DNA of 64,000 nucleotides from a virus. The notes beneath the pieces were generated by a model. It did not search any database. It saw nothing but the letters and a program-made list of their open reading frames with translations, and was not told the DNA's origin. Positions 10,532 to 56,548 of the stretch are shown here, piece by piece (position 1 is the stretch's first letter; every line of letters begins with the position of its first letter). The position numbers and the translations under genes were made by a program. Location of the stretch: the IMG/VR virus record IMGVR_UViG_3300042691_041718, positions 64,001-128,000 of that record. The stretch is one strand, 5' to 3'.

Positions 10532-12025
10532 ATGACAAAAATTGTAACAAGGATAGCACCTTCACCCACGGGACCATTCTCGCATCTTGGAAATTTGAGA
10601 ACTTTAATTTATAACTATTTTCTTGCTAAGAAAAATGGTGGGAAGTTCTATGTGCGGTTAGAAGACACTGATAGAGATCGTTACACACCTTCTTTTCTCG
10701 ATTATTTCAAGGATATGTGTGATTGGTTAGGAATAGTTCCAGATGGTTCTTATTGGAACCCAGATCCATCAATTGGTTCTTTTGTACAATCAGAAAGAGA
10801 TTATTCTGATAAAGTTAAATTTTTGTTAAATAACGGATTGGCTTATTACGCTTTTGATACTAAAGATGAATTAGAAGTTCTTAAATCAAAAGGTTTAAAA
10901 TATGATGCGACTACTCGTATGTCTATGAATAACTCATTGACTAATCCATCAACTGATGTAATGTTGCAAAGTGGTGTTCCGTATGTTATCCGTTTCGCAG
11001 TTGAACCTAATGTTGATATTACTTTTGATGATGCTATCTTAGGAAGTATCACAATCAATACCAATACTTTAGATGATAAAGTTTTGATTAAATCAAATGG
11101 TATTGGTTCTTATCATCTTTGTAATGTTTGTGACGACCATGATATGGGTGTTACTCACGTACTTAGAGGTAACGAGTGGGTTAATAGTACACCATTCCAT
11201 GTAATCCTTTATAAGGCATTTGGTTGGGATGTACCTACATTCGCTCATTTGCCACTAATTATGAACCCAGATGGTAAAGGTAAGTTATCTAAAAGAACAG
11301 CAATGAAATATGGTATTCCAATTGCTCCACTTGGTTACACAGATGATTCTGGTAATTATGTTGATGGTTGGAAAGATTTAGGATTTGATCCAAAAGCTTT
11401 TATCAATTCATTGGCGTTAATTGGATGGAACCCAGGAGGTGATGTTGAAATTATGTCTATGGATGATATGATTAATTCATTCTCTTTAGATAGAGTTCAT
11501 AAATCAGGAGCTCGTTTTGATATGGATAAAGCAAAATGGATAAATGCTAATTATTTGAGAATGACTCCAAATAACGATTTGAAACCATTTATCAATATTA
11601 AGGATGATAGATATTCTGATGATAAGTTGAATAAAATCATTGACTTGGCTAAAGAAAGATCTGAATTCAAACATGATTTGAATACAATTGTTGACCTTTT
11701 CTTTAATGATCCGGTTATTACAGATATTAAAAAAATTGATGATAATTTTATCACAGTATTTTCTAATGATGTTGATGGATTTATCAAGAGTTGTACAAGT
11801 GTTAACTTTGATGTTCCAATGGATATCAAAGATTTGATTAACAACATTTGTAATAACAATGGTATCAAAATGGGTAAAGTGATGCCAGGGTTGAGAATGG
11901 CTCTTGTGGGTGGTATCTCTGGACCAGACTTAATGACTACTATGAGTATCTTAGGAATGAGAGAAACTATTAGTAGATTAATTAAATGTGTATCAATTTG
12001 TTATAATGATACTATGACAAAATAG
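10532..12025 (+). CDS. gltX: Glutamyl-tRNA synthetase (class I)
   Basis: TRIAPSPTG..HLGN (HIGH), RLEDTD, YAFDT, DDHDMGVTHVLRGNEW, GKLSKR (KMSKS), ALIGWNP, SGARFD, LRMALVG. Confidence 0.95.
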   Translation: MTKIVTRIAPSPTGPFSHLGNLRTLIYNYFLAKKNGGKFYVRLEDTDRDRYTPSFLDYFKDMCDWLGIVPDGSYWNPDPSIGSFVQSERDYSDKVKFLLNNGLAYYAFDTKDELEVLKSKGLKYDATTRMSMNNSLTNPSTDVMLQSGVPYVIRFAVEPNVDITFDDAILGSITINTNTLDDKVLIKSNGIGSYHLCNVCDDHDMGVTHVLRGNEWVNSTPFHVILYKAFGWDVPTFAHLPLIMNPDGKGKLSKRTAMKYGIPIAPLGYTDDSGNYVDGWKDLGFDPKAFINSLALIGWNPGGDVEIMSMDDMINSFSLDRVHKSGARFDMDKAKWINANYLRMTPNNDLKPFINIKDDRYSDDKLNKIIDLAKERSEFKHDLNTIVDLFFNDPVITDIKKIDDNFITVFSNDVDGFIKSCTSVNFDVPMDIKDLINNICNNNGIKMGKVMPGLRMALVGGISGPDLMTTMSILGMRETISRLIKCVSICYNDTMTK

Positions 12026-12684: not shown

Positions 12685-12978
12685 ATGTATTTTGTGAAGT
12701 TTGAAAATATAGGAGTCTTTGTTAAAGAGAGTGGTAAACTTGTTAGTTCACCATGGAATCTTAAACATGAAATTTTTCAATTAGAAGAAGGTGAGAATTT
12801 CAAAAAAATGATAAGAAAGAGTCCTTTTGCTAATTGTAAAAGAATAGATTATTTTGATCCAAATAAAAAAGAGGCAATCCCAAGGTATATAATGGATTAC
12901 ATCTTAGACTTGGAAGAAGTGAAGGCTATTATAATTTTAAAAGAGCGAGATAATAAAATAAACCAAATATTAGAGTAA
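12685..12978 (+). CDS. Hypothetical protein with C-terminal tail RDNKINQILE
   Basis: 97 aa; TACTTTTG at 12672..12679 upstream. Confidence 0.65.
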   Translation: MYFVKFENIGVFVKESGKLVSSPWNLKHEIFQLEEGENFKKMIRKSPFANCKRIDYFDPNKKEAIPRYIMDYILDLEEVKAIIILKERDNKINQILE

Positions 12979-13412
12979 TGAAATTAGGTTTGGATATACA
13001 CGGAGTTATTGATAGTAAGCCTGAAATATTTGCTTTTCTCAGTAAGAGTGTTATTGATGCGGGTGGAGAAGTACACATCATCACTGGTGGTACTTGGAAT
13101 GATGAGCTAAAAAATTTAGTTGAACAGAGTGGTGTTATCTATACACACTCATTTTCTGTTTATGATCATTTGAAAAGTATTGGTGCTAAACAAATGGGTA
13201 GAATTAAATTCCCTGATGGTACAACACAAAGAAAGTTTGATAATGATTTGTGGGATAGTATTAAAGGTGAATATTGTGAGAAGTGGGGAATAGATTTACA
13301 TATTGATGATACAGAGGTTTATTCTAAATATTTTAAAACTCCATTCTTACTTTTTAAATCTAATGACGACTTAGAAAAATTGTCGCATATAGATATAAGA
13401 AATTTGATGTAA
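12978..13412 (+). CDS. HAD-superfamily phosphatase-like protein
   Basis: LGLDIHGVID (motif I), IITGG (II), K (III), LHIDD (IV). Confidence 0.7.
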   Translation: MKLGLDIHGVIDSKPEIFAFLSKSVIDAGGEVHIITGGTWNDELKNLVEQSGVIYTHSFSVYDHLKSIGAKQMGRIKFPDGTTQRKFDNDLWDSIKGEYCEKWGIDLHIDDTEVYSKYFKTPFLLFKSNDDLEKLSHIDIRNLM

Positions 13413-13415
13413 AAT

Positions 13416-13919
13416 ATGAATTATGGAACTGAGGAAAGTCCAATAAAGTTATTTAGTATAGAACAAGGAAGAGAATACTTAAATAATTTAAGATGTGAGA
13501 ATGGTGATTATATAATTTACCATCGTTTAGGATCTACTTATATAAATGATAATATATCTGATATATATGAGATTTACACATCATCACACAAATTGGATAA
13601 AATATACATAACTTATGTTGATGAGTGGTTGACTGATTTAAGACCACCGACAGGGTATTTATTTGAAAGTCCATTTCTTTCTGATTTAACGGAGCTATCA
13701 GGAGAGTATATATTTGATGATACAGATTATAATGATGAAGATGGTTATTTAAAACAGTCATTAACTGAGTCAGGTGGGTATAATATGATGGATGATGATT
13801 TTCCACTTGGTGTATTAGATAAATTAATGAAAGAGTTTGTCATTATTGGAAATAAAAGTAAGATAATTGCTGAAATAATTTCTTTTAGAAGAGATAGAAA
13901 ATTAGATGATATATTATAA
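13416..13919 (+). CDS. Hypothetical protein with C-terminal tail RDRKLDDIL
   Basis: 167 aa ORF. Confidence 0.65.
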   Translation: MNYGTEESPIKLFSIEQGREYLNNLRCENGDYIIYHRLGSTYINDNISDIYEIYTSSHKLDKIYITYVDEWLTDLRPPTGYLFESPFLSDLTELSGEYIFDDTDYNDEDGYLKQSLTESGGYNMMDDDFPLGVLDKLMKEFVIIGNKSKIIAEIISFRRDRKLDDIL

Positions 13920-14326
13920 TGTCTTTGAAAAAATATAAAAGTAAATTTGATATAATCGAGAACGATATTGACAAACTTGATATTCGACCATATAATCACT
14001 GTAATGGTCAGTGGTGGTGGGGATTTTATTATGATTGGGATGATGATTATGATGATTATGAGTATGAGTGGGAGTATATTGAATGGGATTATATAAAAAT
14101 ACCGGAAATTGATTGGGGTTATAAAGTTATCAATAAATCATTTCGTAACTGGCGTATCAGTGATCCAAGTGTACCTGGAACTTATGTTGATATGGAAAGT
14201 GTTTATGGTAAATCCGAAATGAGAAATCGTAAGATAGATATGATTTTAGGTTTAAGAGAACCTAATTACCAAACAACTGTAACTCTTGGAGATTTTTTTG
14301 ATAGAATTGATAAACATTCAAATTAA
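13919..14326 (+). CDS. Acidic, Trp/Tyr-rich hypothetical protein with a sub-terminal RNRKIDMIL
   Basis: 135 aa ORF. Confidence 0.6.
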   Translation: MSLKKYKSKFDIIENDIDKLDIRPYNHCNGQWWWGFYYDWDDDYDDYEYEWEYIEWDYIKIPEIDWGYKVINKSFRNWRISDPSVPGTYVDMESVYGKSEMRNRKIDMILGLREPNYQTTVTLGDFFDRIDKHSN

Positions 14327-14680: not shown

Positions 14681-15319
14681 ATGAAATACGCAACATTTAG
14701 ATACTTATACCCGCCTCGTCCAGAGAACGCAATTCCTAGTTCTGAACTTTATTATCATGATAATGGTTCGATGGTTGCTCAACCAAAATTAAATGGTTCA
14801 AACTGTCTTATCTTCACAAATGGTGAAGTTGTTTATAAGATGAATAGACATAATGATAGACTTACTAGATTTGAAATTAAAGATGAAGAAGTACTCAATT
14901 TATATAAAGGTACTGGTGGATGGACTGTATTAAATGGTGAATACTTAAACAAGAATAAACAAGATGAAAACAGAAAATCATTTAATCATAAATTGATTTT
15001 GTTTGATATTTTGGTTAATGATGGTGATTATTTAATTGGTAAAACATTTGAACAGCGAATTAAATTGTTAGATGAAATGTTTGGTCAAAACGAATCAGAA
15101 AAAGAATATCTTTATTCAATTTCAGATAATGTTTATCGTGTTAAATCATATGAAAATAATTTTAGTGTGTTGTTTGATAAACTAACATACAATAACGAAC
15201 TTTTAGAGGGTCTTGTGTTGAAAAGAAAGAATTCTAGATTAGAAATAGGAAACACTCCAAAAAACAATTCACGTAGTCAAATTAAATGTAGAGTGACTAC
15301 TAAAAACTATAAATTTTAA
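14681..15319 (+). CDS. ATP-dependent ligase-type nucleotidyltransferase, adenylation domain only
   Basis: Motif I QPKLNGSN, III LNGEY, IIIa LFDIL, IV EGLVLK, V QIKCR; no OB domain. Confidence 0.75.
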   Translation: MKYATFRYLYPPRPENAIPSSELYYHDNGSMVAQPKLNGSNCLIFTNGEVVYKMNRHNDRLTRFEIKDEEVLNLYKGTGGWTVLNGEYLNKNKQDENRKSFNHKLILFDILVNDGDYLIGKTFEQRIKLLDEMFGQNESEKEYLYSISDNVYRVKSYENNFSVLFDKLTYNNELLEGLVLKRKNSRLEIGNTPKNNSRSQIKCRVTTKNYKF

Positions 15320-16071
15320 TTATTACTTTTTTTATAGTTATCAATTGCCCATAATGGTTGTAGATTTGATAAAGAATTGACTATTGATGGTGGTGTTTCT
15401 TTATCAAATTTACTAACTGGTATTATATGATCAATATGCCATTCACCCCAATTATCCCAAGACATGCCTTCTAAAAATTTACTTTCAATATTATCTCTAA
15501 ATTCTTTCGATGAGTATCCTAATATATCAATAGTACTCTCTGATTTTTTAATATTAAAATAGTATAGTACCCTACGTAGTGAGTTTCTCCAAGCTACTAT
15601 ATGTGGATTTTTACTTGACCAATTATAAATATACTTTCTGTGTTTTTCTTTATGTTCTGGTAGATCTTTAATGGATTCATAGTATTTCTTTTTCCAATTT
15701 CTAATATAATCTTTATTCTCTTCATAGTATCTCCGTTTAGATATTTTTACCTTTTCTGAATTATTCTTTCTATATTTTCTACCAGCATTTGAAATTTTAT
15801 CTCTAAGTTCTTGATCTGTATTATATCTATTCCTTCGTCTTTCATTAATTTCTTCTTTATTTGACTCGTACTTTTCTTTATACTTTTCAAGTAAATCATA
15901 TTTATTTTCTTTATAATAATTATTGAGATATTTTTTCATTTTATCTCTATTTTTAATTCTATATTCTCTTTCACAATCTTTACATTGAGTTCTTAATCCA
16001 TCATTTGATATCTTTAATTTATTAAAGTTTATCAGATCTTTATATTCTCCACATTTTTTACATTTTTTCAT
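15316..16071 (-). mobile_element. HNH homing endonuclease
   Basis: N-terminal CKKC...CKDC, a charged helical repeat, and C-terminal WHIDHIIP...NLQPLWAIDNYKKSN. Confidence 0.9.
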
Positions 16072-17051: not shown

Positions 17052-18650
17052 ATGAAGTATATTAAATTATATGAAGCTTTTTCATCAGACATCTTAAACA
17101 AGATGATTAAGTATTTAAAGTCTGAGAATATAAGTAATTCGAGTTTATCCAAATTTAAATCAGACCTATTAAAAGTTTTTTCAAATTTAGATATTCCTAT
17201 TAGTGATATACCAGATCAAAATGTTGAATATGGTTCTAAAATTAAAATTTGGAAAATTTCCCCAAAGGGAGATAGTAATATTTCAGGATTAAAATTCTGG
17301 TTTAATCGTGATGGAAGTTATGTTGGTTATTCGGGTGTCGGAAACAAACTTATTTCATTATCAGAGGGTAATGAAATTCCGGATGAATTATTAGAACGTG
17401 TTAGAAATGGTTATTTTTCAAATATTCCAAAAACTGGTAACTTAACTTCTGTTGAAAAAACGGTTGATAATTATAATCAATTGAATAGAGGTGATAAAGT
17501 AATTGCATTTTTATATGATATGCCGTTTAGTGAAGATAGAGACTTAGTTCATAATGATGAAGCAACAGATTGGACAGGTCCGATGACATTTGGTACTATT
17601 TGGAAAAGAGAAAGAGATAGAAAAATCTTTATTATACATGATAATGAGGAGGCTGATGGATCAACAGATGATGATAGTAGGGAGTGGAATCAATATGGTA
17701 GTTATAGCTGGGGTATAGGTAATCCAACTACGTGTTTTGGTGACCATTATTATTTAAGTTTATATACACCTTCTGATAAACCACTCTCATATGGAAAGGA
17801 GGGTGTTGAAGTTGATAAATCAAATCCTGATAATTTTAATCTAAAAGTAAGTGGTGATTATTTATCATCTTCTGGTAGTATGAAAGATATTATAAATGAT
17901 GCTGACTTTGGAATCTATATAGAATTAGTTGATTTAAAAACAAAATCAATAAAAGATATTAAAGATAAAAGAACAGAATTGAAATCTGGTATTATTGGAG
18001 GACCACATGGTTTATCCAATGAGGAATTAAAAGAAATTAATATCAAAAGATATACAGACTTAGCATTTAAAAGATCTGGTATATCAATAGAAGGTGTTGA
18101 TTTTAGTAAATTAAATGATTTCTTCAGTAATTTATTATCTGATTATTTTATATTAAATATAATTCTCCAGGATAGAACTTATTACGACTTTTTGAGTTTG
18201 ATATCATCAATAAGAAACCTGGTCATTTATATAAAAGAAAATAGAGATGAGAATTATATAAAAAGTGGATTTAAAAATATTGAATCATATTTGAATAGTT
18301 ATAAGTCATTAAAAAGTAAGTTTAACACTGAAATTGATTCTAAAATAAAATTAGTTTCAGAATTGGATAGTAGATTTGGTGATTTGATAAAACAAATCAT
18401 TGAAGTTGGTTCAGTTTTTAAAAATAAAATTAAATCAAGTGAATTTATGAGTCTTTACTCACTTAAAATATTAAATAGAAATCTTGATAATATTAAAAGA
18501 ACAATTGAAACTGATATTAGTTATAATGATTTAAACTATATTAGAACATTTGCGGGAGTAAATAGAGATGAATTACACACATTTAATTTTGATGGTGTGA
18601 ATTATGAAGATTCAATGGAATTCTTCAAAGCATTAAAAACAATGATATAA
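17052..18650 (+). CDS. Hypothetical protein, paralogue family A (no zinc finger)
   Basis: 532 aa; starts MKYIKLYEAF; LKFWFNRDG, IIHDN...GS...YGSYSW, ADFGIYIE and EELKEINIKRY blocks. Confidence 0.75.
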   Translation: MKYIKLYEAFSSDILNKMIKYLKSENISNSSLSKFKSDLLKVFSNLDIPISDIPDQNVEYGSKIKIWKISPKGDSNISGLKFWFNRDGSYVGYSGVGNKLISLSEGNEIPDELLERVRNGYFSNIPKTGNLTSVEKTVDNYNQLNRGDKVIAFLYDMPFSEDRDLVHNDEATDWTGPMTFGTIWKRERDRKIFIIHDNEEADGSTDDDSREWNQYGSYSWGIGNPTTCFGDHYYLSLYTPSDKPLSYGKEGVEVDKSNPDNFNLKVSGDYLSSSGSMKDIINDADFGIYIELVDLKTKSIKDIKDKRTELKSGIIGGPHGLSNEELKEINIKRYTDLAFKRSGISIEGVDFSKLNDFFSNLLSDYFILNIILQDRTYYDFLSLISSIRNLVIYIKENRDENYIKSGFKNIESYLNSYKSLKSKFNTEIDSKIKLVSELDSRFGDLIKQIIEVGSVFKNKIKSSEFMSLYSLKILNRNLDNIKRTIETDISYNDLNYIRTFAGVNRDELHTFNFDGVNYEDSMEFFKALKTMI

Positions 18651-18677
18651 AAAAGAGACTGAAAGGTCTCTTTTTTT
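18649..18677. terminator. Bidirectional intrinsic terminator
   Basis: AAAAAAGAGACT-GAAA-GGTCTCTTTTTT between convergent genes. Confidence 0.85.
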
Positions 18678-19008
18678 ATTTAAATAGATTTTTCAATCTC
18701 CAATCTCTGACTTCAATTTTAAAGTCCTCAAATGAATTGGTTCTTGATAGAATGTCAACTTTCTCATTTAATTCTTCTATTAGTGATTTTAGTTCTTCAC
18801 TTCTTTCTCTAATACGACCATCATAAACGCAATCAATTCTAGAATCACCTTGTTGGATTGGTACAAACCAAATAGTTACATTTTGATAATTAAACGATTT
18901 TGCTATTTCTGATAATGTCTCCTCTGCTCTTTGTCGAGACATGCCACCAATATTAACATAATAGGTGAATATTGGGTTATCTAAATTTAATTCATTCTGT
19001 TCTAACAT
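18676..19008 (-). CDS. Mini portal-clip-like protein with tail RDWRLKNLF
   Basis: [22 protein letters not shown]...IWFVP resembles a T4 gp20-type portal segment. Confidence 0.6.
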   Translation of the reverse strand: [110 protein letters not shown]

Positions 19009-19967
19009 ATCTTTGATAATAATTCTTTTTTCTTTTCCGAAAACTCTTCATCGGTTAAAACACCGGCTTTGTGTAAATCATCTAATTTCTTAATTAAATC
19101 TAAGATACCATCAATCTCTTTTATTTTATCCCATTCTTTTTTCAACTCAGTTTCATTTACTTTATTTTTCAATGGTTCTTTTTTTATATCAGATGTTGAT
19201 ACTGGTTTAACACTCTCAGGTAATAATTGTAAAATAGTTGATGAAATATGATATGTATCAAAGTCCATATCAATCTCAGAGAACTTTTGTGAAGATGATG
19301 ATCCCTTTTCAACTCTACCGGTTTCAAATGAAGTGTTAATCTTATGACCAGAAGATAAAGAACCAATACAATTTGATAAATCCACACCAGTTGTATATGT
19401 TGCATTGGTAGAATTATATGAAGTAGTTGTTGTACTACCACTTGTGTTTGTACCAATAATATTATTTGTGTAATAACCACCAGTTGTATTCCCACTTAAT
19501 GTTCCACTTCCGTAAGTTATCCAAGTGTTTGGGTATGTTGGATATGTAGGATAGTATCTTTCAATTATAACTGTATTAAATCTATCTCTCCAATTTTTAA
19601 TAGAAACAACAGATTCTTTATAAAAGAAAACTTCTAATTTACCGTTATTTTGAGTAGCGTTTATCGATTCTAATGAAGCGTCAACTTCATAAGTTGAAAA
19701 AATAAATTTCTTTTTATCATCAATAAAACAATCAAGATAAAATCTTTGACCTGGTTTTAAAACCAATCCAGTTTTTGAAATTGAATTACCATTTAACTTA
19801 ATATCAGCTAAGACACAGTCTGTAAGTGGATTATATAATTCGATTTGGAATTCTTCGGAATCTTTTAGATAAACTTTTCCGTTTTTAATAGATTTTCTAC
19901 CTCTATCAGTAGAATTTACGACCCAAGCACTTGGCTTAGAAACGTGGTTGTTTGCAATTTTTGCCAT
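19002..19967 (-). CDS. Hypothetical protein with a C-terminal SHOCT domain
   Basis: C-terminus LIKKLDDLHKAGVLTDEEFSEKKKELLSKI; Thr/Ser-rich linker. Confidence 0.7.
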   Translation of the reverse strand: MAKIANNHVSKPSAWVVNSTDRGRKSIKNGKVYLKDSEEFQIELYNPLTDCVLADIKLNGNSISKTGLVLKPGQRFYLDCFIDDKKKFIFSTYEVDASLESINATQNNGKLEVFFYKESVVSIKNWRDRFNTVIIERYYPTYPTYPNTWITYGSGTLSGNTTGGYYTNNIIGTNTSGSTTTTSYNSTNATYTTGVDLSNCIGSLSSGHKINTSFETGRVEKGSSSSQKFSEIDMDFDTYHISSTILQLLPESVKPVSTSDIKKEPLKNKVNETELKKEWDKIKEIDGILDLIKKLDDLHKAGVLTDEEFSEKKKELLSKIC

Positions 19968-23407: not shown

Positions 23408-25273
23408 TTAATCTCTTTTATTATTTTTATATTTCTCTTCTTCTTCAAAACGATATTTATCATATCTGTTTGCTATTTCAACTAGGAATTTATTTCTAAC
23501 AATATCTTGATTTTCAAATTCAAACATAAAAAGATCATCCATTCCATTAACCATTTTAATAAAATCTACATAACCAGAATCTCTTCTTCTCACATCATAT
23601 TGTGATGTATCTCCCATCATAACAGCTTTTGAATCATTACCCAAACGAGTAACCCATAACATAAGTTGTTTAATATTTGCATTTTGACAATTATGAACTA
23701 ATATATTTTCAACAAAATAATTATGGTTACCATCAACCTCTATATTATATACAATTTCAGGTTCTGAATTTTGTATATCTACAATATCGACTACTGATAA
23801 ATTTTCATTATATGTTATATTGTATAAATTTCTATCAAAATTACTTTCTAAACTATTATTTAGTTTATATAACATTGAGGGATGTATATATTTAGAAGTC
23901 AAATTAAACATTTTCAATGAGTTTATTTTATTTAGTACTAAAATATTACCTTTAGATGTCTTATAAACACTACCTTCTAATCCAAATTTATTTTTAATTA
24001 TATTTGATAATATTTGGACCTCTGTGAAACTCATTGAATTGGTAGAAAATGTAACACAACCATTTGATTTTGAAACCGATCCATCATCCATATACCATAT
24101 GGATAATGTTCTTAATGTAAACCATCTCTCAATATCATTACTAATTGTTTTTTTCGAGTCTTTATATAGTGAATTATAAAAATTTTCAGATATATTAATT
24201 GATTTAGTTTGAAACCCACATTGTGGTTCACCTGTATATCCAGACTTCAATGAATTTCTATATGATGATATATTTTCAAATATACTTTTTTTAAATTCCA
24301 TATATTCAATTTGTTTTATAGAATGGTTTGTCGAAATTCTATATGATTTTTTTAATTGTTTATTTGGTAATAATGATGAGTCACCCAAGCACATACCTAA
24401 TATTATATCATAAGAGTCATTAGTTAATATAGTTGAATCATTCGTTCCGGTATTCTTATATCTACATATTCTATCACCAATGGTTAAGTTTTTAACCTCT
24501 TCCCATTTAATTTCACCATCTCTGAATACGGAAAATGGATGATTTATTGTTGTTTTTAATGGTTTAACTCTATCTTTAACCGATATTTTAACAATATCTT
24601 TAATTCCATTTTCAAAAACTCCCGTTACTTTTTTATTTTCAACTATTTTTTTATTTTCATCCCAACTGGATACATAAATTTCTTTACCCATTTTGAAATA
24701 ATTAACAATTTCTTTCATTCTAAGGTAATTAAAAGATCCTCTTTTTTTATGGTTTGTAACTACTCTTGAGTCACCAGTAAAACATTCGTCAAGTAACATT
24801 ATACAATTATCATAAGTAGAACCTCTCATGTAAGCAAGTGGCTCAAATTTTATCTCTTCAGTTGAAAAAAGAAAATCCGTATTTTGTTTCCCAATTATTT
24901 TACAAAACGTTGTATAATAAGATTGTTTATAAGGATCAATTTTTTCAGCTATAGTTCCAGGTAAAGAACCTAAATTCTCACCGGATTCTTGAACTGGTTT
25001 AGTAATAATAATTTTTTCAACTTTCTTATCAGCTAATAAAGCTAAAGCTGTATAACAAGTTGTGAATGTTTTACTGGTACCAGCTGGTCCATGAACTACA
25101 CTTAGAATATTATTTCTAATACCCTTATAGAGATCATGTTGTTTAGGAGTTAACTGAACATTTGATTTATTAAATTCATCTTTAGATAATGAATTTTTCT
25201 TTCTTGATGTTTTTCTGTGTTCATAATCTTGAATCCCTTCGTCGATTTCTGATTTTAAATCTCGTTTAGCCAT
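23408..25273 (-). CDS. phoH: PhoH-family ATPase interrupted by an intein
   Basis: GPAGTSKT, TKPVQE, LGSLPG, EPLAYMRGSTYDN, LLDE|CQN, TRLG, GDTSQYD. The spliced product is about 256 aa. Confidence 0.92.
   Translation of the reverse strand: MAKRDLKSEIDEGIQDYEHRKTSRKKNSLSKDEFNKSNVQLTPKQHDLYKGIRNNILSVVHGPAGTSKTFTTCYTALALLADKKVEKIIITKPVQESGENLGSLPGTIAEKIDPYKQSYYTTFCKIIGKQNTDFLFSTEEIKFEPLAYMRGSTYDNCIMLLDECFTGDSRVVTNHKKRGSFNYLRMKEIVNYFKMGKEIYVSSWDENKKIVENKKVTGVFENGIKDIVKISVKDRVKPLKTTINHPFSVFRDGEIKWEEVKNLTIGDRICRYKNTGTNDSTILTNDSYDIILGMCLGDSSLLPNKQLKKSYRISTNHSIKQIEYMEFKKSIFENISSYRNSLKSGYTGEPQCGFQTKSINISENFYNSLYKDSKKTISNDIERWFTLRTLSIWYMDDGSVSKSNGCVTFSTNSMSFTEVQILSNIIKNKFGLEGSVYKTSKGNILVLNKINSLKMFNLTSKYIHPSMLYKLNNSLESNFDRNLYNITYNENLSVVDIVDIQNSEPEIVYNIEVDGNHNYFVENILVHNCQNANIKQLMLWVTRLGNDSKAVMMGDTSQYDVRRRDSGYVDFIKMVNGMDDLFMFEFENQDIVRNKFLVEIANRYDKYRFEEEEKYKNNKRD
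23690..24784 (-). mobile_element. Contiguous intein (365 aa) with a LAGLIDADG endonuclease in PhoH
   Basis: Starts CFTGDSRV; block B TTINHPF; LGMCLGDS and WYMDDG; ends YNIEV...NYFVENILVHN; +1 residue Cys. Confidence 0.92.
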
Positions 25274-25591: not shown

Positions 25592-28500
25592 ATGTGGAAA
25601 TACAATAGTGATTATGGTAAATGGTTTACAAAAACAGATTCTTTATTAAAAGAAGATTTTGATTTTTATAAACAAGAGTTGGTTGCTACTAGGTTTTATT
25701 CAAAAGCCCTAAGTGGTTCAGCTTATGTTGCGATTGATGATGTGAATAATTTATATGATGTTATTAATGCTTGGAAACCAAGAAACTGGTTTGTTAGTAC
25801 ATTAAGTTCTAATTTTGCTTATACACCACAACCGACAAAATTTCCAACTCCAATTGATACAAACTCTCAATATGATTTTTACACAAAAAACTTAAAAGAA
25901 TATAGTCTTACTTTAAAAAATCTTTTTACACCGGAAAGGTTGATGAAAGATATTTTAGCTAATTATATTCAAGTTGATGTAGCTACTACACAACAAATTG
26001 ATTTAACATTAGAGTTGGATAACTATTATATAGATGATATTAAGTTAAAAGATGGCCACAAAGTTTTAGTTAAAGACCAAGTAACATTTGAGATATTAGA
26101 TATATCTGTTAATCCAGATGAATATTTTAAAGGACCTTACACAATAGTTAATGAGGAAGGTTTAGATATAGAATATCAATATTATAGTAATGAGAACGGC
26201 TTATATGAATTTAGGAATAGAAAATTAGTTAAGTTAAATGACTTGGATGACTATGAAAAATGTTCTAGATTAAGCGTTTATGTTAAAATGGGTACAACAA
26301 ATCAAAATAAACAGTTTAGTGTTAGAAGATTATTAAACGGGTTTTATCCAACATCATTCAGAAATGAGCCAATGGAATTCGTTGAAAAACATAATTGGTT
26401 ATTAAGAAACAGAGTAGATTATAATAACTTATTTGAAACTAACTATTATGATATTTTTAGACATGGCACTCAATCTATTTATATAAGTGGTGTAACTTAC
26501 AGTATACCGGAAAGAACAATTGCAGTTGGTGAATTTGGTACAATAGTTAATACTCAAGATGGTTATTCAAATATAATACCTTGTAAATATAAAGATAATT
26601 TAAGAAGTATAACAAGTACTGAAAACTATTACTGGATTTGTGGTGATAATACAACTTTATTAAGAATAGGTAAACATGATTTCGAAATAAAAAATATAAA
26701 ATTAGATACCTATACAAATTTAAGATCAATATCATTTGTTAATAATTTGAGAGGTGTTATCGTAGGTGATTACAATACTATTTATATAACTAATGATGGT
26801 GGTGAAAAATGGCAGTTATTAGATTTTACAAGTTTTAGAGAATACAATTATAATAAGGTTATTTTTGTGACTGATACTAAATTTTATATTGGTGGTAAGA
26901 GTGGTGTATTTTTAGAAATCTCAGAAGATATAAATGGTTGGAGTGCTAGGAAGAGAAGAGTATCTAGACAAATAGATGATGAAGATGAGTATGTTTTAGT
27001 AGATCACATAAATGATTTATGGAAAACATCAATAAGTGGTTGGGGATTAAGTTACTCATACTATACACAATCAATTTCATCACCAAAGGATTTAGTTTTT
27101 ATGGCTGTTGATGGTGGTAAAATAATTGCATATAATGAGAATAATTTTATAGATAGTGACTTTATATATTTTGATTTTGATAAAAATTATGGTGATATAA
27201 AAAATATTACACAACAAAAAGGTACTAATAATTTCTTTTTTAGTAATGATGATGGTATCTATAAATTTGATATTAGTGATTTTAAATACTATGGTGTTGG
27301 TAATACATATTCAAATACAATAATATCAGCAACAGCACCTTCGAAAATATCAAGTTTATACGCAAATAGTTTATATGATTATAGAGGTGAATATTTGTTA
27401 ATAAGTGGAAATTATACTCTTGTTAAATCATCTACACATTCATCATCATATGATTTTGTTGATTTAGACTCGACTTTTTTCTCAAAATTAAAATCAAAGC
27501 TATTATTTATAGATTATGATATGGGTAGTAAATTAAATTTCTTTACTGATGAAGGAAATTATAGATTACCAAATTCAACAATTATAAAACAAAATGTTTT
27601 TTCGGAAAGTACAGAATTAACATTTAATAATTTAGTTTATGGAGCTACTGCCCCAAGTTTCATGACGCAGTCGGAAGTAACTTGGTATGACTATTGGTGT
27701 GATAGAGAAAAGACATTTGAGTATTACTCTGTTAATCCTCTTTCTAACTCATCAAAAGTTTTAATATCAAAAACATTTTCAGGAACTACTCAATTTACGG
27801 TGGCTACTGTCAGTTTTGTGAATACAAACACAGTTGATTTGTTAAAATTAGCACCATCATTTAATTATACTGGTACACAAAGTTCTAGATATAAACACAT
27901 CGGTGCTTCTATATCATCAGTAGGTGGATCTAATTTCACACTATATTTAAAAGATTACTTGATGGTTTTAGGTGTTACAAATAGTACATCAGCAGTTAGT
28001 AATAATAAATCTTTTGATGTTGATTTAGGTGATGTTTTAAGAATTGAATCTGGTGTTGTTGAAGGAAATTTCATAGTTAATAGAATTGAAAATTTCACCA
28101 ATAGTAATAAGTATATTTACATGTTTTCGGATTTTAGTGGAGATATAATAAAAAATCTAAAAACATCAACATCATCTATTGTATTAAAGAATTTAAATAA
28201 ATTTTATAACTCAGATGACTTAATCACTAATTTTAATTCACATCCGCTTGGAATAGGATATAAAATGAGTGATTATGGAGATGGTTACTTAAAAATTGAT
28301 CCTAAATTTAATAACTACACATCTTATTATAATTTAGCAACAGAAATTCATGTAAATTCTGATAATGATTATTTAGAATTTAACTCATCAGACTTTTTAT
28401 ATTATGGTATTCCAGATGGAACAAGCTCTGTCCCACAAACACTTAATTGTAATTCAAATGTTTATCCAACTGAGATTAGAGTTAATTTCAACTTATATCA

Positions 28501-31500
28501 TTTAAGACCATCTGATTTGAAAATAAACCTAATTGGTCCAAGTGGTGAAATATTAAATGTTATGAATGGAGCATCACAATCAATTAGTGGTTTCACATTT
28601 AGTAACACAACATTTACAACTAAATCAACAGCTGGTACATTAGGAACTTTTTCATCTCCTTATACGGATGTAATTAAAATGAATATGGGTTTAAGTGCTG
28701 GTTCTTATTCTTATGTTAGTACAACAGTTGATTTTAATGATTTGTTAATAGAAGGTAATGCAAAGGGTGATTGGAAATTAGTAATAGAGGATAGTGTATC
28801 AAGTTATATTGGTTATTTGAAAAATTGGTCTATTTTATTCAAAGGAGAGATAAAAGAACCGTTAATTTATACGGATGGTTTCTTAAAATTTGGATACACA
28901 CCAAGATATAATCTACTTGATTATATGACTAGTATAAATAAAACAAATTATGTTAACCCAACATTCTACGCAACAAAAGAGTATTTAACAATGCCTATCT
29001 ATAATGATTTAGAGTTTGGTAGTTTAACAGCATCTAATGTTTATTTGGATTCAGCTGGATTGACAGCATCTGAGGGTAATTATAGTTATAAAGATAATAA
29101 GATATATTTTGGTGATAATTTGAAGTTAGAGTGGGAAAGTATTTTTATTAATACATTTATTGACTTAACAATCTATCAACCATTAGCAAATTTATCAACA
29201 GGTGGAACTTTCTCTTCTGAAAGATTATTAGTTACAAATAAGTATTATGATTCAATCAAATCTGGATACGTTATAGAGTTTCATAGAAATGTTAATTTCG
29301 AATTAAATACTGCTATAGGTGGATCAAAATTAAACATTACATCTAGAAGAACTTTAGAGCAAATAAGTGATGATTTACAAGAATTGAATAATATTCAAAG
29401 AAGACTTAGTAAACAAACTGAAATACATAGTGGCCAAACATATGATAATTATGAAAGAGAACTTAATTTTAAGATATCAACAGATTCATATGCAAAAATA
29501 TTACTTTCTGATGTTGATACATATCAAAACTTAACTGGTTTAATTTACACGGATTATAAGAATGAGTTGGCTATGAATTTAACTAGAATGGAAAAAGATT
29601 ATAAAATCTCCATTAATAATACAGCTAATGTGAATGGTAAACTTTATGTTCGTTGTAACGAAAAACATGAATTGGGAAATGGTGATGGTGTTATTTTAGA
29701 GTTTATTGGTGGTACATATTCATCTGAATATTTAAATCAACAATATTTTGGTTATCATATAGTTACACAAGTTTATAATGAATATGATTTCTTAACAGAA
29801 GTTGATTACGGACAAAATGTTTACTTAGGTAATGATATAGGTTATGTTAAATATGTCAAAAAAGATCCTTTCTTTAATTATGAGCCTGTTGATTTAATTG
29901 ATGTTTCTTTAAATAAAAGAGCTAAACAATCTATTCAATTAGATACCGATAATACAAAAATTGAAGGATCTACTTATAGCTTAGTTAATGTTGATTACAA
30001 TAGATATAGATTTAGATTAGTTGATAATCTAACATTTGATGATCTACATACTAAATATCCTTGGGTATTAGAGGCTGAAATCTCAGATGCTTTAATTGGT
30101 GAAGATGAGAATGGTATAGTTTGGTACAAAGGTATTTGGGAGTTTGGTAGATGGTTTGGTGGTACTTGGTATTCTGGTCAATGGAGATATGGAGATTGGT
30201 ATGAAGGTAACTGGTATTCAAGAAATGTAAGAGACTTAAAACTTTCTGTTAAAGTTGATGAAGTTGATGATTTCACAAAATCTGTTTGGTTTACAGGTAG
30301 ATGGTATGATGGAACTTGGAATGATGGTACTTGGAGAGCAGGTAGATGGTATGATGGAACTTGGAATAAAGGTTCTTGGTATAATGGTATCTGGAATGAT
30401 GGAACTTGGAATAATGGTAGTTTCATTGGTGGTATATGGGTTGAAGGTACTTGGAATTCAGGTAATTTTAATACTGATAATGAACCAGCTTATTGGATCG
30501 ATGGCGATTGGTATGGTGGTGACTTTGAAAATGGTATCTGGTATAATGGTATATTTGAGCAAAGAAATGGATTATCTAGATTTGGTACAAATGCTTATAA
30601 CAGTAGAACAGCTACTTGGAATGGTGGTACTTTTAAAGGTGGTAGTTTCTATTCAAACTTAAAATTATTATCAAATGCTTCGGAAACAAACAAGTATTCA
30701 ATATGGAAAACTGGTAAGTTTTTAAATGGTGATTGGTATGGTGGAATTGCATATAATATGGAGTTTACATCAGGTGTTTGGCATGGTGGTATACTAGAAG
30801 ATATTGAAATTATAGGACTAAATGAAACTAATAACTCATTTATATTAAATGGTATATTTAGATTTAATATAGGAGATGTTATCTACGTTACAGATAAATT
30901 TAACAACTCTGGTTTAAGTACATATGGAAGTCTTAGTGAACCAAAAAAATATACAATTTTAAGATGTGTATTAGATGAGGTTAATAAAATTACGGAGATT
31001 TATATTGATTATAATATATCATTAAGTGATTATATTGGTATTTTCAAATCTGATGTTAAAGATGGTACAATGGTTAATAGCATCTATGGTAATTCAAGTA
31101 TATCTACTGGTTACTCTGGTTCTATTGTAGAATATTTCTACACGGATGAAATTGAGGATAAAATAAATAATGTTAGAGTTAAAATAAATTTAGAAACTAA
31201 TCCAGGTTTAACACAGTCTTTATCATATCTAATGATAAATCTTAAAGCTCCTAATGGTAATGTTATAAATGTTAAAAAGTTGGGTGTTGGTGATACCGAT
31301 ATTTATTTGAAAAATACTGTATTTACTGGTACTCAATCAACTGAATTTTCTTTAGGATCACCTCTTTATGATGGAGTTTATGAATTTTCAGGGGCTACTG
31401 GAGCTACCGGAGTTGGAGATTATTTGGTAACAACCAATAACGTTGAAGATTTATTTAAAAATACAACAAAGGGTTATTGGGAAGTCTTTATAAAATCATT

Positions 31501-31735
31501 TGATGGTTTAGATGTTAAAGTTAATGATCTAAGATTAGAATTCTGTTACTCTGATAAAATTGGTGCTCAATTAAACAATCCGATAACAAACGGATTTGAT
31601 ACTGGTTTAAGAATTGTTAGTAAGTTTACAAATGCTAATTGGAAATCCGGAATTTGGACAAATGGTATTTATGAAAGCGGTTTATATGAGACTGGTATTT
31701 GGTATGATGGTATATTTAAAGGAACTTGGGGATAA
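25592..31735 (+). CDS. Giant putative virion (tail/baseplate) protein
   Basis: 2047 aa; BNR/Ycf48-like propeller blades (GVIVGDYNTIYITNDGGEKW), two proprotein-convertase P-domain-like modules, and a long G-x-W-x-x pentapeptide tract. Confidence 0.7.
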   Translation: MWKYNSDYGKWFTKTDSLLKEDFDFYKQELVATRFYSKALSGSAYVAIDDVNNLYDVINAWKPRNWFVSTLSSNFAYTPQPTKFPTPIDTNSQYDFYTKNLKEYSLTLKNLFTPERLMKDILANYIQVDVATTQQIDLTLELDNYYIDDIKLKDGHKVLVKDQVTFEILDISVNPDEYFKGPYTIVNEEGLDIEYQYYSNENGLYEFRNRKLVKLNDLDDYEKCSRLSVYVKMGTTNQNKQFSVRRLLNGFYPTSFRNEPMEFVEKHNWLLRNRVDYNNLFETNYYDIFRHGTQSIYISGVTYSIPERTIAVGEFGTIVNTQDGYSNIIPCKYKDNLRSITSTENYYWICGDNTTLLRIGKHDFEIKNIKLDTYTNLRSISFVNNLRGVIVGDYNTIYITNDGGEKWQLLDFTSFREYNYNKVIFVTDTKFYIGGKSGVFLEISEDINGWSARKRRVSRQIDDEDEYVLVDHINDLWKTSISGWGLSYSYYTQSISSPKDLVFMAVDGGKIIAYNENNFIDSDFIYFDFDKNYGDIKNITQQKGTNNFFFSNDDGIYKFDISDFKYYGVGNTYSNTIISATAPSKISSLYANSLYDYRGEYLLISGNYTLVKSSTHSSSYDFVDLDSTFFSKLKSKLLFIDYDMGSKLNFFTDEGNYRLPNSTIIKQNVFSESTELTFNNLVYGATAPSFMTQSEVTWYDYWCDREKTFEYYSVNPLSNSSKVLISKTFSGTTQFTVATVSFVNTNTVDLLKLAPSFNYTGTQSSRYKHIGASISSVGGSNFTLYLKDYLMVLGVTNSTSAVSNNKSFDVDLGDVLRIESGVVEGNFIVNRIENFTNSNKYIYMFSDFSGDIIKNLKTSTSSIVLKNLNKFYNSDDLITNFNSHPLGIGYKMSDYGDGYLKIDPKFNNYTSYYNLATEIHVNSDNDYLEFNSSDFLYYGIPDGTSSVPQTLNCNSNVYPTEIRVNFNLYHLRPSDLKINLIGPSGEILNVMNGASQSISGFTFSNTTFTTKSTAGTLGTFSSPYTDVIKMNMGLSAGSYSYVSTTVDFNDLLIEGNAKGDWKLVIEDSVSSYIGYLKNWSILFKGEIKEPLIYTDGFLKFGYTPRYNLLDYMTSINKTNYVNPTFYATKEYLTMPIYNDLEFGSLTASNVYLDSAGLTASEGNYSYKDNKIYFGDNLKLEWESIFINTFIDLTIYQPLANLSTGGTFSSERLLVTNKYYDSIKSGYVIEFHRNVNFELNTAIGGSKLNITSRRTLEQISDDLQELNNIQRRLSKQTEIHSGQTYDNYERELNFKISTDSYAKILLSDVDTYQNLTGLIYTDYKNELAMNLTRMEKDYKISINNTANVNGKLYVRCNEKHELGNGDGVILEFIGGTYSSEYLNQQYFGYHIVTQVYNEYDFLTEVDYGQNVYLGNDIGYVKYVKKDPFFNYEPVDLIDVSLNKRAKQSIQLDTDNTKIEGSTYSLVNVDYNRYRFRLVDNLTFDDLHTKYPWVLEAEISDALIGEDENGIVWYKGIWEFGRWFGGTWYSGQWRYGDWYEGNWYSRNVRDLKLSVKVDEVDDFTKSVWFTGRWYDGTWNDGTWRAGRWYDGTWNKGSWYNGIWNDGTWNNGSFIGGIWVEGTWNSGNFNTDNEPAYWIDGDWYGGDFENGIWYNGIFEQRNGLSRFGTNAYNSRTATWNGGTFKGGSFYSNLKLLSNASETNKYSIWKTGKFLNGDWYGGIAYNMEFTSGVWHGGILEDIEIIGLNETNNSFILNGIFRFNIGDVIYVTDKFNNSGLSTYGSLSEPKKYTILRCVLDEVNKITEIYIDYNISLSDYIGIFKSDVKDGTMVNSIYGNSSISTGYSGSIVEYFYTDEIEDKINNVRVKINLETNPGLTQSLSYLMINLKAPNGNVINVKKLGVGDTDIYLKNTVFTGTQSTEFSLGSPLYDGVYEFSGATGATGVGDYLVTTNNVEDLFKNTTKGYWEVFIKSFDGLDVKVNDLRLEFCYSDKIGAQLNNPITNGFDTGLRIVSKFTNANWKSGIWTNGIYESGLYETGIWYDGIFKGTWG

Positions 31736-40924: not shown

Positions 40925-43900
40925 ATGCCATTACCTTCACAAAACATCATTAGAAATAAACCATATTTAGTTTCAGCTGTGGATTATCAGTTAGGTACTT
41001 TTGTTGATCCATTGCAATATAATTTAGCTTATTTTGATAATTTTCAAATATTAGAGGAAAGAACGAATGGTTACGCAAGTCCTCGTTTGGTAAACTGGGT
41101 AGAACCATATACTGTCAATGATATAAATAAAACATTATTTTATACAGAGGTTAATTCAAATATACAAGTTGGTGATAGAGTATTTATAATAAATGGATAT
41201 TATGATAGTGATTTATTGATTAAGGATGATAAGTATAAATCTGGTAGAGATGGTTATATAGTTCTTTATGTTGATAAATGTAAGATAGTTCTTGATATAG
41301 ATTACACTGGTGTTTTACCATTCAATGATACTGAAAAAAAGGATGACTTTGTAAAAGTTTGGAAAATTTCAACAAGAGAACAATTCTTACATGTTAATAA
41401 ACAAATATCATCAAGAGGAGGTCAACTTAACTATAAGTTTGATAAGTATCAAAATAATATGATATATGCTGATTCTAATGACGTTTTTTATCAACCAGTT
41501 TATAACGAAGAGTATACCGCAGGTACAATATCTAATATAGCTGGATATGGTGTTAGTTTAGGTTTAACAGGTGCTCCAGGATTTTTTGTTAGAAATGGTA
41601 GTGGTTATTGGATTAATATATCAAAAGAGTTATACTTTTATGGTTCTTTTTCAGCAGCTCTTGGAACTTATTCAAATAATAGACTAATGGTTATGAGTGG
41701 TGATTTCACTCATAAAGGAACCGATTTCAAAGAAGGAAATATTTATGAATGGGTTACTGGACCTACAAATTCATATTGGGGAGTTGATAAACTTTTCTCA
41801 AAACCAATAATTAGTAAGTCTAACTTTAGAAGTGGTGATTTTTTTGGAACTTTTAATAATGGTATTTATGGAATACAGGAAAAGAGAATACAGTGGAAAG
41901 GTATAAAATCTAAGTGGAATGGTGGTACTTTATTAAATACAATTTGGGAAAATGGTGATTTAAATTCAAAAATAACAATTGCTGGTCAAAACTATACAAC
42001 AACACTAGATAGTTCTGGTGATCCAATTCAAAAAAGTAATACTAATAATAATGGTGGTAAAGGGTTTAACTTTATTATAGATTCTAGTATATTAAAAGCT
42101 AATATTGAAAATGGTACAATAATAAATGCTAAATTAGGTGGTACAAATACTAAGAAAGTTTTAAAAAATCACTTAAATTCTGCTACACAAAGTTTTGATA
42201 TATCTATTCAAAAAGGATACTTTGAAGATGGACAATTTAATTCATTATTAATTGACAATTCAACTTTAATTAACTCTAAGTTAGTTGATAGTAAAATAAC
42301 AAATAGTAGAATTGTAAATTCCCAAGTTATTGATAGTGTAGTCAAAGACTCTACTTATATTTCGGAAGATTCTATTAAGATAAAAGCTTACGATGAGTGG
42401 AATGTTTCAGAATATAGATACACTAATCTAGCAAATAACCCAACCGGATCAAGTACTTATAGTATAATAAAACTATCTAGTCCATTTAGCTTACAAAATT
42501 CAAGAACAACACACAAATTATTCAAATTTTATATTGATGAAAAAGACTACAAAAAACTTAAATTAGATGATTATTTCTATTTAAAGGGTATAAACATAAA
42601 TAATAATTCAAAAATTCCAATAAATTTCTTTGATAAAAAATTTAAAATTGGAACTTGGGTTGATTTTAACGATGAATATACAGAGTCTTTTATAAACGAT
42701 GATTATACATATGAAAGAGATAATACAGTGGCTAATTTCTATAAAAGAGGATTTGAGTATAATGCTTATTTATCAACACCTGAAGAAAATAGTTATGTTT
42801 TAAACAGTTTAACCGCATCTGTTGATTTACAAATGATGATAAGTGCTACTTTATCATCAACTGCTAGTATAGTTGCTCAATCAACTGGAATAATCAAAAC
42901 AAATACAAACTCAAATTACTATTCAGTTGATATTTTAGTATCTATACAAGATGTTATAAATAGAGATGTGGATTCAACAGAATTTAATTTTAACTATAAT
43001 TCTAATCCTGGTACACAATCAACATATATAGGTAACTTAATTGATATATCAAAAGCATTTATAATAAATTCAAACTTTGATAGTGGTATTTTAGAAACAT
43101 CTGATTGGAATAGTGGTTATTATATAAACTATAACAACGATGTTAATATATCATCATTAACAGGAAGTGGTACTTATAGAATATCTTTAAATACCGTTAA
43201 TAGTACTTTAATTGTTACTAATACACAATATGTATCTGAAAAAAATAAAGAATTTAGTTTTAAAATTGGTGATGTTGTTTATTTAAACTCAGTTGATTAT
43301 ATAAATGGTGGTGTAGTTAAAAGAATACCTGATTCATACGAAGTATTATCAATTGATGTTAACAAATTAACACTTAAAGAAATTGGTACTAATATATTAT
43401 CCGGATTAACAGCTGGTGGATATTTTGAAACAAATAATTCAAGAAACAGATATAATTATCTAAGCAAAGTTAAATTCTATAAGAGTAAAATAAAATCTGG
43501 GCTATTTAAAAGAGGATATATGAATAGTTCATTGATAAAAAATGATAATTATGATTCATCCGATAAAGATTTTTTCAATCTTGAGAAGATTAGAAGTTTG
43601 ATTATAAGTGATACAATTTTTAGTAATAATAATAATATATTATCATCAGCAACTTATTTAAATTCATTTTTTATCGGAGGTAATGATGTTTGGCAAGATG
43701 GTATAATACAAAACTCATTTTTAAATAACTTTGGTTTCAATAAAGGTGTTATTAAAGAATCTCAATGGTATGATGGTGTATTTACTAATGGAACTTTTTA
43801 CAACTCAAGATCATTTGATGGTAATGGTACTATTGATAAGAAATATTATTATGATAATAGAATAAAATCATATCACATAGATGGTGTTGTAACAGCAACT

Positions 43901-54125: not shown

Positions 54126-55653
54126 ATATACTTTTTATTTTATTTTCTATTTCTTCTATATTGTTTGAAAAAAAATGTTTAATATTATTATCAATACAAA
54201 ATGATTTTTTTTCATTATATTTATCATTGTGTTTTTTGATTTTATACATACCTGTATATTCTATATAAATATCATGATCAATTAAATAAAAATCACATCT
54301 TTTTTTAGAATTTGGATATAATTTTTCGTACTTATATGAAATTTCATTATATTTTAAAAATTTAGCAATCATATACTCACCGGAACTTCTACAAAGATGA
54401 TTATTATAATATCTCATGTAACCATATTTGCATTTTATACTTGGATTAACAGACATTAGATATTCAAACATTTTTTCATAAGTAGTTTTATAAAAATATG
54501 ATACTATAACTTTTTTTATTTTTAAAACAATATCAGTTATACTAAAGTTTTCCATTAAATAATCTACTAATTTAAAATAATTATCAAAAGATAATAAAAA
54601 AACAATATCTTCTTTATCTTTAAAATTATTAGATTTTATAAACTCATCTACCCATTTATCACCATACATTTTTTCATAATATGATGGAGTTCCATAAGTT
54701 TTTTCATAATTTTCCAAAAGAAATGAATACATATCTTCTTTATTCGTATTGTATATTTCATATAATACTGAATAATTAAGTCTATAACTTATTTTAGCTA
54801 AAGTTAAATTATCATTTATAAGAGTTATTATCATATCTTTATAATTCTCAAATGATAATAGATATCTAATATCTTCTTTATCTTTAAATGATGTAGTTTC
54901 TATATACTTTTCCAACCAAATATCACCATACTTATTTTTAAAATGTTCTATGGATCTAGAATCTTTATCATCGATTCCATTGTAATCGGATTCCATCAAA
55001 GATTTTCGCCATTTATTTTGGCGTTCTGACCAAATTCTTTTACCTTCATCGGATCCATATTTAGAAATACACTTTTCTAATGAAAATGTTGATTGTCTAT
55101 TAGATAATTTAATTTTAGATTCTTCTAAATTAAAACCTTTGTTTATCCAGTAATTTATATTATTACTTCTTTTTGATGATATAATTTCTCTAAACTCCAC
55201 ATCATTTTCCAATTTTGATATAAAACAACTATTACTATTTTTCTGAAACTCATTTGACTTTATTATAGAATTTTCCAATGTATATCCTCTCTCCATCCAA
55301 TATTCCTTGTTCATTTTTCGTTGAGATTTTATTTTATATTCAGAATCTTCTAAACTAAATCCCCTTTTTAACCAAAAATTTATATTCATAGGAGATGTTT
55401 CAACATTTTTAATTGTTGGTACTCTTTTTATTTTAGCGGTTTCTTCATCCCAGCCTCTACTTAACCAATATATTAGAGTTTTTTTACCAAACTTTGGCAT
55501 TCCTATTAAAGACTTCATTTTTGATATAAATGAGGTCTTCCCACATTCAAAATTAAAATCTTTAAATAGATTTAAGATCTCATTTTTTTTATCTGGGTGA
55601 AAATCAATTAGATAATTATCTAATTGATTTTTGTTTTTTAATATATTGCTCAT
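54115..55653 (-). mobile_element. Free-standing PD-(D/E)xK/Vsr-like endonuclease between the split-intein halves
   Basis: Repeats of YW.xRG(W/F/Y)x.E; C-terminal RSSGEYMIAKFL...YKYE...RCDFYL...IYIEYTG. Confidence 0.75.
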
Positions 55654-55915
55654 ATAAAGAATAATTATTTTCTTTTATATATTCAATATATTCCTTTCCC
55701 CCATCCATTATTTCCAAAAAAGTACAAAAATCATCTATATTCAAATTATCTATTGAAAATTTTATCTCAATCTCAGTTTTATCAACAACAGATTTTCCAT
55801 TTCCGTTGTTTCCAACTAGTAAGATAAGTTCTCCTTTTTCTGTATTTAATTTTACGACTTGTTCATTATTTCCGAATGATTTAAAACCTCTAATTCCAAT
55901 TTCGCTAATCAGCAT
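55616..55915 (-). CDS. N-terminal 41 aa of the SbcC/gp46 ATPase plus a 58-aa N-intein
   Basis: IGIRGFKSFGN and LLVGNNGNGK (Walker A), then SVVDKTEIEIK, which fits intein block A (S/C-x4-T-x-I); the N-intein starts at 55792. Confidence 0.85.
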   Translation of the reverse strand: MLISEIGIRGFKSFGNNEQVVKLNTEKGELILLVGNNGNGKSVVDKTEIEIKFSIDNLNIDDFCTFLEIMDGGKEYIEYIKENNYSLYEQYIKKQKSIR

Positions 55916-55947
55916 AATATAAAAATAATTTTTAAATTATACTAATT

Positions 55948-56322: not shown

Positions 56323-56548
56323 TTAAAATATCATTTATTTTTTCATCTCTTTTAATCTGATCATTATTTAATAAATAACCAGAATTAATTAAAGTCCACT
56401 TAATGGACTCAGCCATTTCATTTCTACCATCACCATAAGCATATAACATATCTTTATAGTAGGTGTGAATTGCCTGTCTTTCTTCTTTATCTTCTAATTT
56501 GTGTATTTTATTTAAATCTAAAAAATATTTTCCAATTTTATCATTCAT
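56312..56548 (-). CDS. Hypothetical protein with tail RDEKINDIL
   Basis: 78 aa ORF. Confidence 0.65.
   Translation of the reverse strand: MNDKIGKYFLDLNKIHKLEDKEERQAIHTYYKDMLYAYGDGRNEMAESIKWTLINSGYLLNNDQIKRDEKINDILNGD

Follow-up and report, generated by a model that had tools for sequence, protein, structure and literature searches.

A separately encoded, conserved homologue of the portal clip in a huge uncultured phage

In every tailed-phage head, the packaging motor, followed later by the neck and tail, is attached through one single hub, the portal clip. In phage T4, the clip of the portal protein gp20 (residues 279-358) consists of three strands and the helix alpha6, and its sheet is assembled from two adjoining subunits (PMC4493910). 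Residues N291, M292, R295, and K296 of the clip tip face the terminase gp17, and helix alpha6 (R295, K296, H300, H303, and K309) receives the C-terminal arms of gp13 or, upon faulty assembly, those of gp14 (PMC4493910; PMC12929587). The present analysis concerns a short open reading frame (ORF), here called the clip-like ORF, which lies in a stretch of 64,000 nucleotides corresponding to positions 64,001 to 128,000 of the IMG/VR record IMGVR_UViG_3300042691_041718. This whole stretch is referred to as the window, and it is part of the genome of a huge uncultured phage. An original prediction, made from the letters of the window, had described the ORF as a mini-portal, consisting of a clip mimic with an internal deletion followed by the tail. 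The N-terminal domain of the encoded protein (approximately residues 13-65) is homologous to the clip of gp20-type portals and is a paralogue of the phage's own portal clip, because a profile match, a transitive BLAST match to the portal of a huge phage, and Foldseek matches to predicted portals all agree.

The peptides on which the prediction was built are all present in the ORF (residues 13-39, 46-61, and 101-109), and the T4 strings given beside them are exact (gp20 283-308 and 333-350 in NC_000866). Compared as a single pair, the two proteins are only weakly similar, BLASTP aligning ORF residues 16-35 with gp20 285-304 at 6 identities out of 20 (E 0.028). When the close family was compared by hhalign with 13 diverse T4-like portals, a probability of 50-55% was obtained; with a family profile of 105 sequences against the T4-like portals together with 42 huge-phage portals, the probability was 92.7% (P 4.3e-7). 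The latter alignment places ORF residues 15-73 onto gp20 284-362 and has a native score of 50.0, against 12.4 for the reversed profile and 22.4 for the best of 100 column shuffles. It skips about 20 residues, so that the clip loop which gp20 has at 310-332 is absent from the ORF, as had been anticipated. The prediction had drawn two parallels with gp20, which fared differently. The first (ORF 14-41 with gp20 283-310) is significant by itself, with an hhalign probability of 95.6% and P 1.2e-8. The second (ORF 40-66) is colinear and has W, P, G, T, and I/V columns in common with the clip, but taken alone it is not significant, as its score of 8-10 lies below shuffles reaching 16.

The transitive comparison passes through the nearest public records, LR745206 (~634 kb) and LR756502 (642 kb), both of which are placed in the Mahaphage clade, for which Bacteroidetes hosts are predicted (PMC7162821). 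The portal of LR745206 (L019:1210-2940, 577 aa) is recognized by PF07230 with E 3.8e-58, and its clip includes IKGLSRQRAEEQIGQLIHDY, which is near-invariant across 80 related portals. The GMSRQRAEE of the clip-like ORF stands against GLSRQRAEE in this clip, the seven residues SRQRAEE being identical. In BLASTP searches against the same clip, E values of 6e-4 were obtained for the clip-like ORF, 5e-6 for its homologue P0152, and 5e-8 for its homologue P0219, the last with 17 of 27 residues identical (63%). When the hidden Markov model (HMM) of the family was run over the whole LR745206 genome, the portal was the best non-self match, at a marginal E of 0.003. This match falls in the portal wing (~146-191), outside the clip. 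In T4 gp20 (L001:3208-4782), the wing string FRRWYVDSR (148-156) resembles a string at 281-290 in the clip; this likeness and the wing match of the HMM may reflect an internal repeat or chance.

Structurally, the AlphaFold2 model of the clip-like protein comprises a strand (13-19), a helix (25-38), two further strands (45-51 and 57-62), and two C-terminal helices (66-89 and 93-108). The predicted local distance difference test (pLDDT) score reaches 93.8 when the domain is modelled alone, against 85 for the full-length protein. The secondary-structure order of the modelled domain, namely, strand, tip, helix alpha6, and two strands, is the same as that of the published gp20 clip (PF07230 Portal_T4; PDB 3JA7 and 9LU6). 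In a Foldseek search of BFVD, the top match was an uncharacterised 324-aa phage protein (E 1.9e-6), and the best named matches were predicted gp20-type portals, found at ranks 2, 4, 6, 9, 10, and 16. These portals gave template modelling (TM) scores of 0.62-0.67 and root-mean-square deviations of 2.7-4.2 Å, with E values of just 0.008-0.1, whereas thioredoxins reached TM scores of at most 0.47. Searches of solved structures with the whole protein and with the N-terminal domain listed no portal, and the N-terminal domain returned weak thioredoxin-like pieces. The fold evidence is considered supportive of clip likeness, not conclusive.

Those thioredoxin-like pieces raise the question of whether the domain could be a small strand-helix-strand-strand fold of the thioredoxin or Rdx type that serves another function and has come to resemble the clip by convergence. 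In keeping with such an origin, the latter half of the domain shows no significant clip likeness when taken alone. Conversely, all the thioredoxin-like matches fall below significance and are outranked by predicted portals in BFVD, and the protein has a single conserved Cys with no CxxC or CxxU motif of the kind expected in thioredoxin and Rdx (SelW) proteins. The clip profile match, moreover, beats every shuffle widely, and the seven-residue identity and the 63% identity over 27 residues to a huge-phage clip are hard to explain by convergence, which is regarded as very improbable. The clip likeness of the N-terminal domain, the core of the original prediction, therefore holds: gp20-type matches were found by profile, by transitive BLAST, and among predicted portals.

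The best-aligned columns read G/N, L/M, S/P, R, Q, R, A, E, and E in the family, and their portal counterparts read N, L/M, P, K, R/K/Q, K, A, E, and Q/E. They take in gp20 N291, M292, R295, K296, and A297, to which G/N, L/M, Q, R, and A correspond in the family; in T4, these gp20 residues are in contact with gp17, gp13, and gp14 (PMC4493910; PMC12929587). As these alignments show, the strand, the tip, and helix alpha6, onto which terminase and neck dock, are the part of the clip that has been kept, and the significant signal lies there.

The likeness does not extend to the rest of the portal. The clip-like domain amounts to about 55 residues, as compared to roughly 520-580 aa for a gp20-type portal, and it comes without wing, stem, or crown; PF07230 is unlisted for the ORF even at E<=1, and no likeness beyond the clip was found. 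Unlike in gp20, the domain is followed by an unrelated helical hairpin. When these C-terminal 45 residues were compared with the portal, the scores (12.6-15.0) remained inside the shuffle range (<=18.2). The term "mini-portal plus tail" is thus unsupported, since the hairpin matches no portal part and the protein consists of a clip-like domain joined to a hairpin of its own. The hairpin is specific to the clip-like family, and its first helix (66-89) also occurs in the gp13-fusion family described below. Nor is the clip-like gene the remnant of a portal gene. It exists in addition to one, since LR745206 and four IMG/VR contigs each carry a full PF07230 portal together with an orthologue of the ORF, the distance between the two genes being ~75 kb in LR745206 and in the two contigs measured.

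The clip-like ORF is a real gene on which purifying selection acts in Mahaphage-type huge phages, as indicated by its wide conservation, its low ratio of nonsynonymous to synonymous substitutions (dN/dS), and its own terminator hairpin. Its close homologues form 80 clusters (90% clustering) that are 44-99% identical over 95-100% of the ORF, and the wider family forms 191 clusters (50% clustering), nearly all of 100-140 aa; homologues of 142-143 aa also occur, and some members sit on contigs of up to 629 kb. Among 48 family members, the mean column identity is 56%, with P12, N43, W47, C60, N81, D95, and R101 invariant and L9, I13, and F14 invariant or nearly so. For orthologue pairs with dS 0.15-0.7, dN/dS is 0.03-0.28. 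The ORF follows the full-length pattern of the family, in which an LDNPIF cap precedes the clip-like domain and a hairpin with FEDFK..RDWR closes the protein. Other architectures include tandem duplicated clip-like domains (P0142, P0152, and P0215) and the 321-aa P0219, which has acidic flanks. The ORF is present in a single copy in the window's record.

Scans of the ORF against Pfam, PHROGs, NCBIfam, and PADLOC gave nothing significant, sequence and profile searches of the PDB gave no match, and a feature-based search of the ESM Atlas gave no usable match. The RDW[RK] tail was sought in the other ORFs of the window, and no common C-terminal tag was found. Two further candidates were set aside during the family analysis. 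P0097, an HTH_48 repeat protein of 1724 aa, was matched in 11 stretches, but spuriously. The name CopG/RHH antitoxin, assigned by JGI to homologue P0014, was rejected, as no Pfam or NCBIfam match was obtained and the fold is strand-helix-strand-strand plus hairpin.

A second relationship connects the clip-like ORF with gp13-type neck adaptors. The homologue P0201 (269 aa), which was retrieved with E 4.1e-7 in a phmmer search, contains a T4 gp13-type helix bundle followed by a clip-like module. By BLASTP it matches T4 gp13 at 18-47 (E 3e-4) and at 235-294 (E 3e-7), and it also matches phrog_211 and has a precomputed PF26809 match. The switch to the clip-like module occurs where gp13 has its portal-binding arm, and MAFFT aligns the C-terminal arms of gp13 with the beginning of the clip-like part of the fusion protein. 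In T4, it is the arm of gp13, docking into the portal clip, that occupies the position of the fused module. The gp13-bundle plus clip-module architecture is shared by ~45 clusters of 199-277 aa. The C-terminal part of this fusion family (P0201 122-206) aligns with ORF residues 5-90 at an hhalign probability of 99.1% (E 1.1e-18). This profile comparison establishes homology between residues 5-90 and the module at the C-terminus of the mini gp13-type adaptor paralogues, a relationship which ties the module to the portal-neck interface. The likeness covers the clip-like domain and the first helix after it. The ORF differs from the fusions in that it is without the gp13 four-helix bundle, starts with its own LDNPIF cap, and ends in another helix, which contains RDWR. 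Indeed, nothing in it corresponds to the gp13 bundle (T4 3-51 and 239-300), there being no PHROG or Pfam match and the alignment being limited to the C-terminal module of the fusion.

The fusions are extra paralogues, because a full-length gp13-like gene is found on the same contig. Each of the four fusion-bearing IMG/VR contigs (G001-G004; loci L157-L160) has a full-length gp13-like gene (~396 aa) in addition to the mini form fused to the module, whose open frames are of ~208-216 aa, and a PF07230 portal is visible on 3 of the 4. On one of them (G001, IMGVR_UViG_3300031162_001603, 55062-57521; L177/L178), the portal ORF is of 1107 aa, and ~430 additional residues interrupt its PF07230 match at model position ~276; an intein, or else a large insertion within the portal gene, could account for them. 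The window's record contains a 266-aa gp13-like gene without the module (G000:C1 7623-8423, equivalent to L107:1438-2238; phrog_211, E 3.4e-12), and its product has its own arm-like tail at the end. Directly upstream of this gene lies an ORF resembling a DnaJ-type zinc-finger chaperone (G000:C1 6190-7176; L107:5-991), and after it comes a GIY-YIG-like endonuclease ORF.

From these data it might be supposed that the clip-like protein is a structural component of the neck, i.e., a detached adaptor module that is incorporated into the virion where portal and neck meet, perhaps as an additional ring below the clip, and not a soluble regulator. The finding of the module fused in one lineage (hhalign 99.1% with ORF 5-90) and separate in another would agree with this, as would the gp13-like gene without module in the window genome and the strong sequence conservation, which is typical of assembly interfaces. 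This is nevertheless judged unlikely, as the fusions are second copies beside the ~396-aa gene and not the main adaptor, the clip-like gene lies amid nonstructural genes, and the gp13-like protein of the window phage, with its arm-like tail, does not appear to be missing anything.

The features of the locus are collected in Table 1.

Table 1. Position and basis of the clip-like ORF, its parts, and its immediate neighbours, in window coordinates.
Feature	Position	Strand	Details and basis
Clip-like ORF, complete coding sequence	18676-19008	minus	ATG start, 110 aa, TAA stop
Motif E.NLDNPIF, residues 5-14, ahead of strand 1	18967..18996	minus	Most conserved part of the family
Clip-like domain, residues 13-65	18814..18972	minus	AlphaFold2; hhalign to gp20 284-362; BFVD portal matches
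Statistically significant core, residues 14-41	18886..18969	minus	Equivalent to gp20 283-310: strand, tip, helix alpha6
C-terminal helical hairpin, residues 66-110, FEDFK..RDWR	18679..18813	minus	AlphaFold2 model
Hairpin between A and T runs	18651..18676		Sequence and folding energy
Upstream gene, 321 aa, SHOCT C-terminal domain	19002..19967	minus	PF09851, E 4.7e-8

The nucleic acid hairpin at the end of the gene separates two convergent genes, the clip-like ORF and a gene of 532 aa on the plus strand (17052-18650), and it starts at 18676, the final base of the stop codon of the clip-like ORF. Its folding energy is -11.8 kcal/mol (z -4.45), and equally stable structures were obtained in 0 of 200 shuffles; it is likely a bidirectional intrinsic terminator. 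On the other side, the stop of the upstream SHOCT gene and the start of the clip-like ORF overlap by 7 nucleotides (ATGTTAG), and the two genes are probably co-transcribed and translationally coupled. This pairing was absent in both more distant relatives inspected (LR745206 and the locus L004). The SHOCT protein itself has an N-terminal domain without assignment and a Thr/Ser/Asn/Gly-rich linker ahead of the SHOCT domain.

The wider surroundings are those of a huge phage genome, with genes for a glutamyl/glutaminyl-type tRNA synthetase, an intein-bearing PhoH, SbcC, and NUDIX and ligase-like proteins. The synthetase (10532-12025, plus strand) is a class I enzyme with an anticodon-binding domain (PF00749, E 8e-71; PF19269), and the PhoH-like ATPase (23408-25273, minus strand) is split by a LAGLIDADG intein (split PF02562; PF14890 and PF03161). 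Very large ORFs are located on the plus strand at 25592-31735, 40925-46378, and 46416-50951 (2047, 1817, and 1511 aa, respectively). In the 186-kb record fragment containing the window, no portal and no terminase were found. In LR745206 and L004, the orthologue of the clip-like gene is flanked by orthologues of the window ORFs 12978-13412 and 13919-14326, and the L004 counterpart of the former carries a NUDIX match. Compared with these relatives, the clip-like gene of the window is displaced by ~5 kb and inverted, and it is found near an HNH endonuclease gene. The latter (15316-16071, minus strand; HNH/endonuclease VII-like, phrog_1035, E 4e-20) adjoins the rearranged block. Homing endonucleases (NUMOD3 and LAGLIDADG) are frequent around the homologues of the clip family too, and the neighbours of other homologues include small unknown genes, HSP70-like genes, and kinases.

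Such accessory-gene surroundings are also what might be expected of an antidefence function. Avs4 is triggered by portal proteins, and a free clip could act as a decoy that binds and blunts a portal-sensing immune sensor, such as an Avs4-like STAND NTPase, a direction to which the original prediction had pointed. The protein would indeed be a soluble copy of a conserved and exposed portal surface. On the other hand, nothing in these data indicates that any sensor reads the clip, PADLOC families match neither the ORF nor its neighbours, a portal-like fragment could equally trigger a sensor of this kind, and the joining of the module to a gp13 helix bundle suggests a role in assembly more than one in immunity. 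The decoy function is accordingly held to be distinctly unlikely.

The function that is preferred here is an action at the portal docking interface, where the clip-like protein would regulate or chaperone the step from motor to neck; the chances that this is correct are considered about even. In this mechanism, a small soluble protein would most likely present its clip-like face to one of the usual dockers of the clip, be it the large terminase or the C-terminal arm of a neck adaptor or stopper. The alternative is that it binds the clip ring of the portal itself. By either engagement, the hand-over from the packaging motor to the neck would be regulated or chaperoned, and the family-specific C-terminal hairpin could provide oligomerisation or a second contact. 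A more far-reaching proposal, put forward tentatively and regarded as rather doubtful, is that huge phages and the gp13-fusion lineage encode a dedicated class of soluble mimics of the interface. These clip copies, free or fused to an adaptor, would bind the terminase or the docking arms of neck proteins, serving either as a checkpoint that times the motor-neck switch or as a weapon that jams packaging and neck assembly in co-infecting relatives.

Several observations weigh against an action at the docking interface. The clip homology is carried mainly by a 28-residue strand-helix unit, the second parallel being insignificant by itself. The sheet of the free protein is predicted to close within one monomer, so that its surfaces may differ from those of the clip in the portal, where two subunits contribute. 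The gene is placed amid nucleotide-metabolism and unknown genes, not structural ones, its neighbours vary between relatives, and the gp13-module fusions are, as described above, additional to the full-length adaptor gene.

In full-text literature searches, neither a portal mimic nor a clip decoy was found. A conserved, separately encoded copy of the clip is thus undescribed in the searched literature, and the same applies to a clip-like module fused to a neck-adaptor paralogue; the homology of ORF residues 5-90 to the gp13-fusion module is likewise new here. If the clip-like protein does bind the partners of the clip, it would show that head completion in the largest phages known is subject to a further, novel level of control, and it could reveal a new form of phage-phage competition or of immune evasion. 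If this is true, the protein would also be of practical use, as a compact natural reagent to probe the docking of terminase and neck to the portal.
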